From Candidatus Omnitrophota bacterium (GTDB taxonomy: Bacteria; Omnitrophota; Gorgyraeia; Gygaellales; Profunditerraquicolaceae), in assembly GCA_030693145.1 (NCBI GenBank), contig JAUYBI010000041.1, positions 10,228 to 74,227 on the forward strand: a stretch of DNA of 64,000 nt, given 5' to 3'. The notes beneath the pieces are model-generated. The model saw nothing but the letters and a program-made list of their open reading frames with translations, did no database searches and was not told where the DNA came from. A program made the translations under genes and the position numbers. Numbering within the stretch: the first letter of the stretch is position 1; each line of letters starts with the position of its first letter. Positions 42,001 through 54,000 of this stretch are shown piece by piece.

Positions 42001-45000
42001 TCCAAGTCGCGCTTGACTTTGTGGAAGCAGAACCGGCGTTAAAGGTTGCCCGAGAGGCTTATTTAGGCGGTGTAGATTTTATTGAGGCAGGTACACCTTT
42101 GATTAAAGCATTAGGCATGTCTGTGGTAAAAGAGGCAAAGCAGAATAATCCCGGTAGATTGATCGTAGTTGATATGAAGCCAATGGACACAGGTAAGCTT
42201 GAGATGGAAATAGCGATTAAAGCAGGAGCAGACATTGTAATTATCCCTGGCATTGCGCCGTTATCCACCTTAAAGGAATGTGTTGAGGCAGCACAAACAG
42301 CAGAGGCAGGATTTGATATCCTAAGAAAATTATTGATAGAAACTGGGCAAGAATATGATATTCGTCTTGATTCGTTTTTTGCTGTCGACAATATGGATGG
42401 AGGTATTAATAAGCGCATTAAAGGTTTGATATGGAAATCACTTTTAGACCACGGGGAAGTTTACAACATTGCTAAGAAACATTATGGGGAAACCAATAAA
42501 AAGATATTGATTATCAATGCGGATACGCATGATGATAAAAGCAAAACTAATTCTCCGAATGAAAGCAGTTGGGCTTGGTATTTAGAACAGGAAGATATTG
42601 CCAGGGTAGTTCATATGCCTTCTTATTATAATCAAGATAAAGGGAATAGGAATGAAAATAATTGGCGTACTCCGGAAATAGAAAAAGAAATTTTGTTAGC
42701 GGCAAAAGAAGCGAAGGAAAATGAATGGGGGATTTGGCTCACCATAGATTTTGATTTTTTTTCTTTTAAAAAGGTAGAGGTTGAATATGGACAGGTGTAT
42801 GCGGATCATACATTCAGTACAGAGGTTATGTACGATATGGATGAAAATGAAGTATCAAAAGAATTAACAGCGATGGTGAAATTTTTTAATGATAATAAGA
42901 TAATTATTAGTAGAATTATTCCTTGTGAATCAAGGAGATATTTAGCGAGCGCAGTTGTGAAAACTCCTGTGGGGTTTGATTATTATGAATGGGATGTTTA
43001 TGAGAGATATCCTAAGATTGAAAAAGGGATAGATCTTTATTGTGAGATGATTAGAAAAAATATTATTTCGTTTTTTGGTAAGATGTCAACGCTTAAAAAT
43101 TATGAGAAAAAAGAAGATGAACCGTGTCTTTCTGATGGAGGTATTAATCATGAAAAAGAATTTTCGATATTTGATAAAGGGACTGAAGGTCCTAGGTATG
43201 TTGGCGAAGATGGCGGAAGTAATCAAAAGTTAGAAGTCAAAGTTACTCCTTTCGAGGCGATTGACATACTTGTAAAACACGTAGATGGGACTGTCTTTAA
43301 AGGCATAAATTTTGAAGATGCCTACAAGTTATTCGGCATGATCTTAGAAACAATTCAGGCAGGAGGAGAAATTCATTACATCGCGGCAGGCAGAAGCGGC
43401 CAGGCAGCGAGTATTTTTGCAATTTTACTTAATGAATACGCAAGAGACGCCTTTGGCAAGCCGGTAGTTATCCATAGGATAAGCGCGGACGATTATTTCC
43501 CGCCGGTTAAAAAGGATGGGTTAGTTATAGGAATCAGCGGCTCAGGTTCAACGCCGTTTGTGAATGACAACTTGGCACTGGCAAAGGAATTAGGGGCAAA
43601 GATCGTAGTTATTACCGCAAAACCGCAGATTTGGCAGAAGAAAACAGAAAAGCATCCTGACGTAAACGATGTTGTCCCGGATTATTTAAATATTCCTGAT
43701 GTTTGGGCAAAAGCGGTGTTTAGCAGGATAGGAAAAAAGGCAGATGTGAAGATTATGTATACAAGAGGCGGATTACGGCTGGCAGAGCATAATTTATTGA
43801 TTGAGAGCTTAAAAGAAGCTTACAAAGGCCTGGCTAACGCTCCGCCGGAAATGGTGATACCTCTGGTTATTTCTTATTATTTCCCCCGCCCCGCCAGCGT
43901 TAACAGCGAATTAAAAATCAACCGTAATTTACTTAATACCGCTAACCTTGCCTGGAAAGCAAGCTCTGCCTTAAAACTTGCTCTTCGTAAAGAAATATTC
44001 CCGCATGAGTTGGAGCACTGGATTCAAGGTGATCTTACTACTGAAAGAGAGATACTCGCTAAATCATCAAATAATTTTAAGTCCCAGCCTGAAGTTTTAA
44101 GGGCATTGTTGTATCTTTATAATAATAAGGTAAACGGGTTTGTTTTGGATAAGCAGTGGAGGGCGAATCTAGAATTAATCAGCGCGCGAAAAGCACGCAA
44201 ATCCTTACAAGACGGCGGGGAGAGGCGAAGCAGCCTTGCTCAACGTTTAACCGCTGTTACCAAAAGAGACCCGCTAGAGGTTATTCTTTGTTATTATGCG
44301 GCAAATTCAAGATGGGGTTCAATAAGACGGCTTTCTTCAGATGGCCGGATACCTTTAATCTTTACAAAGATTAAAGGTTGGTTTGGTTCGCGATTAGCGC
44401 GGCTCATTTCAATATTTTTTTGGCTTAGTTCAGCGTCATTCTCGACAATAAACACAATCAAAGCATCCGTTGGAATTCTTTCTTCCAAATCCGGGTGGTT
44501 AATAATATATTTAGAAAACTCATGGTTTATTTCGAGATTCTTTTCAAATAATTCTTTTTCAGTCATTTCGCGCCTCCTTCAAATTACCTCTTACCATAAC
44601 CTCAAGTTGTATGACAAAACTTATGATATCATTCTTCAAGCGGCTATGCGAATATCGCCTTCTCGTATCTGGAATCAGTTTGGCAACATAGGAAATATTC
44701 TGAGGCTGCATAATCGAAGTATAGCTAACTTTTTTAATAATGTCAAGTTTGATGAAGGTAGGATAAAAATAAGGCTTGAGAAAAAAGACGGAGCGGTTGC
44801 TCAAACTAAGGAACTTGACGGGGGGGAGATCCTGGGAGTAGATAATAATCTCCGCCTACCTTTATATGACTTTTCGCGGGCCGAGCCGGAAAAATGGTCA
44901 ATGCGTACCGCCAGAGTCCCGTGGGTAGGCGGCGCAAAATTAGTAATAAAATTTGCCTGGCAGAATAGGCCTCGCGAAGAACAAATTATAATGCTGGAAA

Positions 45001-51000: not shown

Positions 51001-54000
51001 AATACGATATATCCCAAGGGAGCTTAAATAAGGCAAGCGATGAGCTTGAGGGTATATCCGCGGCTAAAGATATAGAGTCCATAGAAATTTTCTACCGGAA
51101 TATAACTCAAGGGGTTTTTGAAGCGGCAAGGAATAAAGCGCCGCCTTTTGGAAATACCGCCAATGACGGCGGCACGGTTGGGCTTACTTTTTATTCTTTG
51201 CGAAGACGATATTTATCAGCATCTACGATAATGAGAGCCTTTTTAAATGCGGCAGGTTTGAGTTCTTCAAGCAGTTTGATTAAAGTATCGTGGATTTCTT
51301 CTTCTAATCTATGGCGAAACCGTAGAAGCACGATGCCATGGTGCAATTTGGGCGGATATAATTTGATATTACTAAAGTCCGTATCTTCAGTAACCAGAAT
51401 CCTCTTTTTCTTTATCGACCATTTAAGAATCTCAAAGTCTGACTTGCCACCGAGGGTTGCTTCTTTAGCAGTAATTACGGAATATCCTAATTTGCGCAAT
51501 AAATTTATTGTGGGTAAGCCTAAACATTCATCAGCTAAGAATTTTATTCTGCTGCGCTTATCTGACAAGGTGGACGTCCTCGTTCTTTACGAGTTGATTG
51601 GCGTATTCTATGCAAGCCTTGATGTCTTCTTTACTAATTTGCGGGAAATAATCGGTGATAATTTGGTCGAAAGTGAGCCCGTCTTCGAGCAGGTCAAGTA
51701 TTTGCCAGACCATAATGCGGGTTTTGCGGATAGCGGGTTTTCCGTGGCAAATTTTCATATCTACGGTTATACGATCAAACATTTTGCATACCTCCTTAAC
51801 AATGGAAATAAGTCTAGCATAGGAATATCACAAAGTCAAGGCGTCAAAAGAGGCGGCGGTAATGTTTCCCGGGATGTCACCCTTGGCCGCTCAACGCGCT
51901 TTGACGGCGGCGCGGCGAAGAAAAAAGCAAAACTGCCCCGGATTTTATCCGCGTTAGCTGCAGCGCCTGTTTTGTTGACCTTAGTTTCAATTTGGCTTTT
52001 TTATAAGGGTGAATTAGGTCTATCAATTATGATTCTTTTTACTTCACCAGTATTCTCTATTGTTTATCTAATAACGTATAAAGCTTATACTGAAAAAGCA
52101 ATTCTCGAAGCTTTTACTGAGGCTCTTATTGAAGCTGTTATTTTAGCCTTACGCGACCCTAAAGTGATGGTTTATTTACATCCTGAAGTTTCTCTTGGAA
52201 AAGATGCCCAAGAGATGATGGTGCAGATAGGCGGATCCGGCGAGAATAACAAAATTTTGCAGTTAGGCCAAACAGAATTTTCGTTCCAAGATAATTCGTT
52301 AAAGATATTTAAAATACATATTGTTCCTCCGGAGTCAGATATCTGGGGACCGATTATTGGTGTTGGTAACGTTTTAGTAGAAATTTGTTTAACAACCGCT
52401 GAATTAGAGGAGATTAATAAGAGGTTAAGAGCGCAGAGCAGTAATGCCGTAAAAAGCCTTGACGGCGGCAGAAAAATAGAACCATCCCTAATTATTACAC
52501 AAACTACTAAGCAGTCTCCTGCTAAAAGAACCTCACAGCAATTAATACTAAACCTTTTTAGTTTAGAAAGTAAACTTAGTGATTCTAACTGGACTGTCCG
52601 CCGTGCAGCAGCTGGTGTCTTGGGCCCGGTGTATGCGGCACTGATAAAAGAAGGAAAAGAAGTTTCTTTAACTCTCTTAGAAAGTAAACTTAATGAAGGC
52701 GGCGAGGATCTTAGCATTGCGGCAGCTAGTGCTCTTGGCCCGGTGTATGCGGCACTGGTAGAAAAAGGAAAAATGTCTTTGTCCGTTCTGGAAAATAAGT
52801 GGACCGACCCTAACGAGTATGTCCGTCTTGCAACATCTAATGCCGTAGACTTGGTGTATCTGGCGTTGATGAAAGAAGAGAAAGAAGTTTCCTTATCCTA
52901 CTTAGAAAGTAAGCTTACCAACCCTGACTGGTCTATCCGCAGCCGGACAACAGCTAATACCTTAGGTCTGGCGTATACGGCCTTGATAAAAGAAGGCAAA
53001 GAAGTATCCTTATCCGTCTTAGAAAGTAAACTCGATGACCCGAGCGAGTATGCCCGCCGTGCAGTAGCTGATGCCTTAAGCCTAGCGTATGCGGCGCGAA
53101 TAGAAAAAGGAGAGATTTTAAATGAGGATTATAATAAATATACGTTATGGACAAAAAGCAATTTACCTTATCAAGGTAAATTAATTAAGCAATACCTTGT
53201 TGCTTCCGATGCGCAGGGATTTATTTCCAGCCTTAAGCGTAAAGCAGAAAACGCAATTAACCGCGGCTTTGATTATAAGAAGGAAAAAGATTTGTGGCTT
53301 GCTTATCTGGGCATAAGGACTGCCGGTATTAATATAACCTATGAGGAATTTAAGCAAAGGATGAGCAAAATCGCCGAATTTGATGGCAAACACCCAGGGT
53401 ATTTTAAGAAGCTTTTTACCAAAGCAGCCAAACCGATAGTAATTGAGCTTAGCGCGGAAGGAGTCCGCCAGATGGATACTTCTAGCGTGGACCTAAAAGT
53501 ATTCAGTCAGAATCTCGCTGAACTTGATTATGTGCGCCTGGGGATAGACAGCTTTAGCTGGATGGATGAGGACTTTCAGCAAAGCAAGGTTTTTAACCTG
53601 CGTAACCTCTATTATCTTCTTAAGCGCCATCAGGCGCAGGAGGCAGGCATAGTAAAAGAAAGAGAACATTTTAGGTGCGAGTTCCCTCAGGAAGAAGCGA
53701 TGAGGCGAGAGCTTCTAGCTAACAGGAAAAGTTTCTACAAAATAGTGTTTTCTTTGGCAAAAGACAGGTTAGGTGACCGTAGTATAGGCCCAAAATGCCT
53801 TCTTCTTATGCGAGATTTGATCATAAGCGATATCATGCTTGATGATGGTCTCTTAAGTCAGATGCGTTCTTCTGATTCTGAAACCAAGCTTTCTGCCTTT
53901 AAGAATTTCTATGAAGACTATAAGAACCATCTGCCTAATTCCTTAGGATTACGGGTAGCAAATATTAAAGGCTTACGGAAATGTTTTGAGGATTTTTCTT

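Follow-up and report, generated by a model that had tools for sequence, protein, structure and literature searches.

A giant open reading frame tiled with enzymes

The 64,000-nucleotide (nt) stretch analyzed here (contig JAUYBI010000041.1 of a Candidatus Omnitrophota bacterium; hereafter the window) is occupied over its entire length by one giant open reading frame (ORF) on the + strand, inside which an island of small genes related to toxin-antitoxin (TA) families lies on the opposite strand. By direct stop count, the + frame starting at base 3 (positions 3..64000) contains 0 stops in 21,332 codons, compared with 1,838 and 2,294 stops in the other two + frames and with 712 (minus frame 1), 1174, and 1500 in the minus frames. 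The giant ORF extends past both window edges and for this reason is absent from the ORF listing. A sequence-only reading of this DNA had claimed that the + frame passes through all antisense genes without a stop; the re-count agrees, and the low-complexity peptide quoted in that reading is found in the + translation.

The + frame was split into pieces, each of which was scanned against Pfam. More than 25 distinct enzymatic families tile the ORF, none of them dominant, which places it among the multi-enzyme giant genes; so does its length, at least 21,332 codons, given that such genes of Omnitrophota are expected to have at least 10,000. The modules include B12-binding radical SAM, DegT aminotransferase, APS kinase, PHP, CofD, phosphoglucomutase (PGM), two copies of phosphoglucose isomerase (PGI; 1e-238 and 3e-229), shikimate dehydrogenase, 6-phosphogluconate dehydrogenase (6PGD), 6-phosphogluconolactonase, several methyltransferases, PRK plus ARMT1, hexokinase, histidine phosphatase, amidohydrolase plus OMP decarboxylase, SIS, PEMT, HEAT repeats, and CN-hydrolase. 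Multi-enzyme giant genes have been reported in Candidatus Omnitrophota (West-Roberts et al. 2023, bioRxiv 10.1101/2023.11.21.568195), and "multi-enzyme metabolic clusters" are a described class of giant proteins in the same phylum (bioRxiv 10.64898/2026.06.07.730766). They share with the ORF of the window a length of tens of kilobases and a tiling by many distinct metabolic domains, among them those of methyltransferase, PGM, radical SAM, hexokinase, and HEAT, and it is in Omnitrophota metagenome-assembled genomes (MAGs) that the nearest relatives of the embedded cassettes described below are found. The window would, on this likeness, be part of such a gene, in which whole enzymes are fused in one frame with the tripeptide DGG between them. 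Transmembrane anchors and domains of the SecA-DEAD or C39 (double-glycine) peptidase type are reported for full-length giants; Pfam found neither type of domain in the window, whose 64 kb cover the gene only in part. Peptidase domains of the C39 and S8 families have been noted in the giants, with the cleavage points stated to be unknown (bioRxiv 10.1101/2023.11.21.568195).

The DGG tripeptide is present in 53 copies in the host frame (5.8 expected), at positions that correspond to enzyme boundaries (for example, 24108, 25908, 34449, and 35802). The hexokinase module occupies 451 amino acids (aa) between two DGG motifs, and it is most closely related to bacterial hexokinases that stand alone, measure ~440–450 aa, and come from mixed phyla (48–52% identity); this agreement in size indicates that modules equal whole genes. 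The DGG octamer GACGGCGG occurs 30 times, in every case on the + strand and in frame, and the Asp codon GAC is used at 68% within the DGG motif versus 21% outside it. Rfam and tRNA scans of the window returned no matches, so the separators are not explained by any RNA element. Two other candidate explanations were considered. A by-eye check of the 47-nt extended form of the separator for a hairpin revealed possible stems of 3–5 base pairs (bp) that vary between copies, and internal translation starts, considered because GATGGAGG holds a Shine-Dalgarno-like GGAGG, were rejected for lack of a start-codon pattern after DGG. The DGG sites are, in our opinion, candidates for positions at which the giant protein is processed or hinged. 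It should be noted that other linkers recur in the gene as well, a ~25-aa extended linker at 43143–43217 and ~45470–45545 and a second element of 12 residues after the separators at 45987 and 47178; separator families therefore exist in the host gene.

Five antisense cassettes within the giant frame

Matching of minus-strand ORFs to Pfam profiles identified five cassettes of minus-strand genes, each of which corresponds to exactly one DGG-bounded module (5/5; summed length 3,171 nt). The ten in-frame + strand DGG separators that bracket them are located at 44211–19, 44817–25, 45537–45, 45987–95, 47952–60, 48738–46, 50334–42, 50925–33, 51165–73, and 51903–11. All five cassettes share the same orientation, with the promoter end facing the downstream separator, and sense-like modules interleave them. 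Cassette modules are uniquely not purine-rich: the purine fraction of their + strand is 0.48–0.50 (0.497 in cassette 1), compared with 0.51–0.69 in nearly all other modules. The small genes named by the sequence-only reading (HicA, two HicBs, DUF433, DUF5615, and DUF2283) were recovered by Pfam where that reading had placed them, together with the two-gene pair that it had noted at 44294–44804. All gene coordinates below refer to the minus strand.

Cassette 4 (module 41; 50343..50933) consists of a promoter-like site at 50867–50839 (TTGACT-17-TATTTT), an AGGAGG 7 nt 5' of the HicB ATG, HicB (50591–50818; PF15919, 1.5e-11, profile positions 3–58 of 123), and HicA (50361–50594; PF07927, 5.7e-22, profile positions 1–58 of 58). 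The antitoxin gene comes first and overlaps the toxin gene by 4 nt. This HicB has 75 aa and no recognizable DNA-binding domain. Cassette 5 (module 43; 51174..51911) has a promoter-like site at 51839–51811 (TTGACT-17(TG)-TAGACT) and an AAGGAGG upstream of DUF433 (51558–51782; 4.5e-22), which is adjacent to and overlaps DUF5615 (51191–51568; 6.2e-23); for the latter, a weaker match to Mut7-C/PIN_10 speaks in favor of a PIN-like fold. Both cassettes are flanked by 47-nt extended-separator repeats of family D3 (...GRSARLDGG), copies of which are located on the + strand at 50295–50341, 50886–50932, 51864–51910, and 54558–54604 (66–83% identity to the reference copy).

Cassette 1 (module 30; 44220..44825) contains DUF5647 (44294–44566; 7.8e-22) and, upstream of it, an ORF (44559–44804) with a weak match to DUF7718 (1.9e-4, below the gathering score). 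Its promoter-like site at 44746–44718 (TTGACA-17-TATACT) matches the consensus at 11 of 12 positions, and GAAGGAGG precedes the DUF5647 ATG; thus, HicB, DUF433, and DUF5647 all have Shine-Dalgarno sequences of the AGGAGG type. Within the DUF5647 coding region (44351–44378), the two perfectly matching 13-bp arms of an inverted repeat stand 2 nt apart; this repeat has a terminator-like score on the + strand.

The two remaining cassettes have lost their toxins, and the host frame is open in both. Cassette 2 (module 32; 45546..45995; promoter-like site at 45953–45925, TTGACT-17-TATATT) contains the second HicB (45701–45925; HicB_lk, 3.5e-8) and a HicA remnant (45633–45704), an internally deleted 23-aa ORF that resembles the HicA N- and C-termini and is tied by DNA repeat D7 to the 3' end of the intact HicA. 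In cassette 3 (module 37; 47961..48746), an intact DUF2283 (48231–48440; 1.1e-17) is preceded by a DUF4258 toxin pseudogene (~48444–48671) with an in-frame TAA at codon 17. This cassette has 75% DNA identity, from the TTGAC box onward, to the DUF4258-DUF2283 pair of a related locus, L004, in which the partner of DUF2283 matches DUF4258 at 1.3e-7 and, in contrast to the window, both genes are intact. On the 3' side of DUF2283, the segment 47967–48158 holds two short hydrophobic ORFs of 26 and 32 aa, one of them behind GGGAGG; nothing corresponding to this segment is present in the L004 cassette.

Outside the island, the ten longest ORFs of the minus strand served as a negative control and had no family match, and the minus ORFs 44801–45040 and 52172–52717 had none in Pfam. 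An NCBIfam search with the eight minus-strand proteins returned no names. An exact look-up of the HicA of the window in the assembly index gave no record, which is expected if gene callers mask embedded genes.

Conservation of the stop-free frame

The sequence-only reading had attributed the openness in part to coinciding wobble positions of the two strands. This holds for DUF5647, both HicBs, and DUF5615; HicA, DUF2283, DUF433, and the DUF7718-like ORF are instead codon-aligned with the host frame. In the codon-aligned genes, host-frame stops would come from the codons TTA, CTA, or TCA, and in the wobble-coincident genes from codon pairs. The four codon-aligned genes contain 0 TTA, CTA, or TCA codons, whereas TTA makes up 39% of the Leu codons of the sense modules. 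To quantify openness, synonymous codons of each minus-strand protein were resampled from the codon usage of the host sense modules; the probability of an open host frame was 0.002–0.10 per gene and ~1e-15 jointly. The five cassette modules have 0 host-frame stops versus 9–27 in each other + frame and 9.6–17.4 in shuffles, and frames antisense to the host sense modules have 3.2–6.7 stops per 100 codons. The openness is thus not random.

Because embedded genes would be masked by gene callers, the + frame translation of the island was used as a query for related loci. The translation of the HicAB module matches internal stretches of two proteins, P0001 and P0002, at 58–59% identity over 168–186 residues. 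P0002 (1,340 aa; locus L001, a 96-kb ENA contig) reads through an intact antisense HicB-HicA pair located between a methyltransferase and SecA_DEAD, and the neighboring enzyme genes of this contig are mostly unfused. P0001 (867 aa; locus L002) contains an intein (PF14890, 3.2e-22) with a splicing domain at residues 155–477, and its antisense HicB-HicA corresponds to residues 250–435, the usual place of the homing endonuclease. Homology of the window, L001, and L002 at the DNA level is limited to ~500 nt that begin with the -35 box and end with the HicA stop, and the flanks are unrelated. The L002 ORF spans 3401–6004 and its cassette 4193–4668; another locus, L014, has a cassette at ~4984–5363 that is likewise inside an intein, and both intein cassettes sit between the N-terminal splicing blocks and the C-terminal block (...THNFIGNNIFAHN/T).

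A census of HicA relatives, limited to one genome per species, comprised 43 loci. Among the 14 relatives with at least 62% identity (two of which are partial matches), 11 are antisense in frames open for 3.5–12.2 kb, and on one side or both these frames continue to the limit of the DNA retrieved. The 11 loci belong mostly to Omnitrophota MAGs, the others to MAGs labelled Planctomycetes; the exceptions among the 14 are L003, L008, and L035. In contrast, none of the 28 relatives with identity of 58% or less, which come from other phyla, is in a long host frame, and their antisense open stretch measures 90–670 nt, save for one genome of 72% GC. All 12 embedded HicA copies compared (12/12) have the same codon-aligned relative frame and no TTA, CTA, or TCA, whereas free-standing copies have 1–4 stops in that relative frame. 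These aligned copies show that the cassette lineage has conserved a host frame free of stops. Selection for frame continuity, one of the two explanations that the sequence-only reading had offered, is strongly supported by this conservation of the frame in embedded copies, by the stops in free-standing ones, by the purge of stop-generating codons from the cassettes, and by toxins that have decayed on the minus strand within a host frame that is still open.

Which of the two strands is under amino-acid selection can be read from the substitutions. Mean pairwise differences among 11 embedded HicA genes are 0.244, 0.145, and 0.589 at codon positions 1, 2, and 3, respectively, and position 3 of HicA is position 1 of the host frame. 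Variation thus peaks at host first positions, so that the host frame has the opposite of a coding pattern and is constrained only against stops. Analogously, the same DNA encodes HicA proteins that are 82–88% identical between loci but host-frame translations that are only 58–59% identical. Judged by these patterns, amino-acid selection acts on the TA strand, and all that is required of the host frame is freedom from stops. Although synonymous change is near saturation, not one stop-generating codon has arisen, which points to purifying selection that has kept the frame continuous over the long term.

When the + translation of the HicAB module served as the query of an exhaustive phmmer search (E <= 1e-3), it matched 88 cluster representatives that read through an antisense HicAB, of which ~16–19 are proteins of 750–6,657 aa with an internal match. 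Two loci were checked at the DNA level: L061 has a complete ORF of 3,259 aa with an intact antisense pair, and L062 an ORF of 2,327 aa in which the embedded HicA has an internal stop and the host frame is open. A gene of the phage integrase family (7813–8706) directly follows this L062 ORF with its decayed antisense HicBA.

Other families behave similarly. A census of DUF5615 relatives on metagenome contigs gave two close relatives, L046 and L047, whose antisense frame is open throughout the cassette, and 13 distant relatives in which it is closed. The L047 contig has 33% GC, and its DUF5615 cassette (107–874; 73% identity) is covered by an open antisense frame of 768 nt that reaches no further than the cassette, with stops outside; the stop-free property may persist there independently of a host ORF, or the ORF around the cassette may be broken. 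Related host ORFs hold further antisense TA genes (DUF4258-DUF2283, DUF433-DUF5615, MNT-HEPN, and BrnT), including a DUF2283 that is 83% identical to that of the window; on the sense strand, these host ORFs encode domains such as Peptidase_M24 and PPDK_N. The separator of other long host ORFs (L001, L004, L006, and L010) is [AST]SP[VLI], with 5 copies versus 0.2 expected, 12 versus 0.5, and 7 versus 0.5. It is 7–25-fold enriched and written in varied codons, which suggests that separators are lineage-specific and would be maintained at the peptide level.

Origin and significance of the embedded cassettes

We consider it likely that the cassettes of the island are autonomous TA units adapted to living in translated giant ORFs and that purifying selection maintains frame continuity through them. 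The island (44.2–51.9 kb) would comprise five autonomous type II TA cassettes, each with promoter, Shine-Dalgarno sequence, antitoxin, and toxin, one per module slot. Only when placed antisense would a gene that carries its own stop fit into an ORF without terminating it. The host ribosome would read through each cassette, producing a non-conserved spacer peptide of 150–262 residues, and a host-frame stop in a cassette would cut off tens of kilobases of downstream enzymes. Since a stop truncates the downstream enzymes, purifying selection would have purged stop-generating codons from the cassettes, namely TTA, CTA, and TCA in codon-aligned genes and particular codon pairs in wobble-coincident genes. 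The cassettes would come from lineages specialized for embedded life, the nearest relatives being embedded in the same frame and the distant ones being free-standing operons. They may have arrived by in-frame recombination between separators or by engulfment at the fusion of neighboring genes. The unrelated flanks, the presence of one copy in an intein context, and the 47-nt repeats around cassettes 4 and 5 argue for movement between slots, and in-frame homologous recombination between repeated separators within a lineage is possible. The role of the cassettes is the least secure step of this explanation; most likely, they represent selfish addiction that incidentally stabilizes a repeat-rich giant gene against deletion, a role like that put forward for TA cassettes of chromosomal integrons, or else phage defense.

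Several points weigh against this reading. Not all five cassettes are functional TA systems, as two of the five lack a toxin. Promoter-like sites number 26 in the region versus 24 in shuffles, i.e., they are not in excess, so it is solely conservation between loci that argues for promoters: TTGAC[TA], a -10-like hexamer, and GGAGG upstream of HicB are conserved in most homologous copies from other genomes. No orthologue of the sense modules of the island (44826–47960) was found at E <= 1e-5. As judged from its sequence, the taxonomic placement of the window is indirect, coming from its gene architecture and from the nearest relatives of its cassettes, and the window contains no marker gene. 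Probabilities of openness assume the codon usage of the host sense modules and would be higher per gene if the source of the cassettes were poorer in TTA; this caveat is offset by free HicA relatives, which retain 3–4 stops per HicA in the frame concerned. Finally, it is from sequence that we infer both the end-to-end translation of the host frame through the island and the expression of the cassettes.

An alternative account, which concerns origin alone and is compatible with the explanation given above, holds that intergenic TA operons on the opposite strand were swallowed as their neighbors fused, with stops cleared during or before the fusion. The equality of modules and whole genes fits this account, as does L001, where most neighbors are unfused and yet one ORF of 1,340 aa reads through the cassette. 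So does L003, in which an 86%-identical HicBA cassette (5777–6228) with a single TTA lies between separate opposite-strand genes (1852, 334, and 969 aa); this cassette may represent the unfused ancestral state or an escaped copy. However, movement accounts more easily for the same cassette being flanked by unrelated sequences, an intein among them, and a cassette with typical codons would need 3–5 simultaneous stop removals per gene before a fusion became tolerable. Engulfment is a tentative possibility that we are inclined to doubt.

The second explanation offered by the sequence-only reading, a frame-aware insertion mechanism, fared worse. It would require an integron-like site-specific or separator-targeted system that inserts at DGG, such that continuity results from mechanism rather than from selection. 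In-frame separators do bracket every cassette, the octamer GACGGCGG is strand- and frame-specific with atypical codons, and the 47-nt repeats flank cassettes 4 and 5. Yet a mechanism of this kind sets the phase and cannot delete internal stops, so that the purge of TTA, CTA, and TCA would still need selection. Moreover, a search of the module boundaries revealed no attC-like palindromes or recurrent local inverted repeat, Pfam scans of the + frame found no integrase or recombinase domain in 64 kb, and cassette junction sequences differ between hosts. Separators vary by lineage while the cassettes are shared, and elsewhere they are kept as peptide, not as DNA. We thus regard frame-aware insertion as unlikely.

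It could also be argued that translation of the giant ORF does not continue across the island, the ORF being expressed as separate units and kept open for a reason other than translation, especially as the giant-gene papers leave open whether there is one product or several cut pieces. No frame-specific constraint besides translation is known, however, the stop purge is confined to one frame in copies from different genomes, and the separators are not followed by a start or Shine-Dalgarno pattern; this alternative is in our estimate very improbable. Slightly less credible still is dual coding, in which the + frame peptides of the cassettes would be functional and both strands under amino-acid selection. 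The + translation is recognizably conserved in other proteins (58–61% identity), but this much is to be expected of any sequence antisense to a conserved gene. Host first positions are the most variable (0.59 versus 0.24 at host third positions), and the spacer modules match no Pfam family and are of low-complexity composition. The last alternative, chance or a compositional artefact with the minus ORFs as mere shadows of the + frame, could appeal to codon-aligned antisense frames being generally the most open (712 stops in minus frame 1 versus 1174 and 1500) but is refuted, and has a negligible probability in our view, given Pfam E-values reaching 1e-23 with full-length coverage and clean negative controls, the joint probability from codon resampling, the contrast of 0 stops with about 10–17 per module in shuffles, and the recurrence of the arrangement in independent assemblies documented by the HicA census and by the phmmer search with its two DNA-level checks.

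The explanation by embedded, selection-maintained TA units can be compared with several known systems. For the TA cassettes of sedentary chromosomal integrons (superintegrons), stabilization of the array has reportedly been proposed in the 2007 work of Szekeres and coauthors and in later studies of Vibrio integrons. Like them, the cassettes of the window are small self-promoted TA units clustered among cargo modules with a recurring short boundary sequence, and prevention of array loss is a plausible role in both cases. Unlike superintegrons, the window has no attC hairpins at the boundaries and no integrase detectable by + frame scans of its 64 kb, and the "array" is a single, presumably translated ORF, in which cassettes must be antisense and stop-free. 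Inteins with homing endonucleases are similar in that a selfish gene is nested in a host ORF and leaves the host product intact, and in L002 and L014 a HicAB cassette in fact fills the endonuclease slot. They differ in that the gene nested here is an opposite-strand TA pair; moreover, the cassettes of the window are bounded by DGG and not by an intein (no module of the window has an Intein_splicing match in Pfam). As in the antisense overlapping genes of bacteria and viruses, frames of opposite strands share DNA, and the one constrains the codon choice of the other, but here one partner is merely stop-free, whole operons are overlapped, and the arrangement recurs as a trait of a cassette lineage. 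The pair of cassette 4 resembles type II HicAB/HicBA systems in its HicA toxin domain, HicB N-terminal domain, antitoxin-first order, and 4-nt overlap; it differs in the short HicB without a recognizable DNA-binding domain and in its location within an ORF, which is new, and its toxin activity is predicted.

Term searches of both giant-gene papers found no mention of opposite-strand genes, separator motifs, or stop-purged antisense cassettes, and literature searches on antisense TA genes in giant genes or inteins returned nothing relevant. Thus, TA families, giant genes of Omnitrophota, and antisense overlaps are each known, and in the literature searched neither antisense TA operons within giant ORFs or inteins nor cassette lineages purged of host-frame stops were found described. 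We would give an even chance to the broader proposal that the cassettes constitute a distinct class of ORF-resident selfish elements, in which a stop-free complementary frame permits antisense colonization of giant genes and inteins. Whereas introns and inteins remove themselves, such elements would stay in place and be harmless to read through. Two corollaries belong to this evenly balanced proposal: the stop purge in the spacers would be population-genetic evidence that ribosomes read giant ORFs of Omnitrophota as single units, and DGG and [AST]SP[VLI] would be long-sought processing or hinge sites.

The nesting of complete, self-promoted operons in a protein-coding gene, kept there by selection across many genomes, would widen current knowledge of overlapping genes and of TA locations. 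That the spacers lack stops although their amino acids are unconstrained argues, indirectly but strongly, for the importance of frame continuity in giant ORFs. This finding is relevant to the question, left open by the giant-gene papers, of one product or several, and it provides concrete peptides and junctions to seek in metaproteomes, while the separator motifs can be tested as candidate processing or hinge sites of giant proteins. Furthermore, because the giant ORF masks embedded genes, gene callers cannot report them, and TA and defense inventories of Omnitrophota and related MAGs are consequently undercounted; the antisense translations, in turn, contaminate protein databases as parts of "giant proteins."

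Two features of the host gene outside the island deserve mention. Both PGI modules (24117–25916 and 29493–31316) have a GC content of ~0.45 versus 0.38 and a near-zero GC skew, and they may be recent acquisitions or the result of a duplication. Just downstream of the island, the HEAT-repeat module contains at 52566–53034 four diverged tandem copies of a ~114-nt unit with 61–70% identity.

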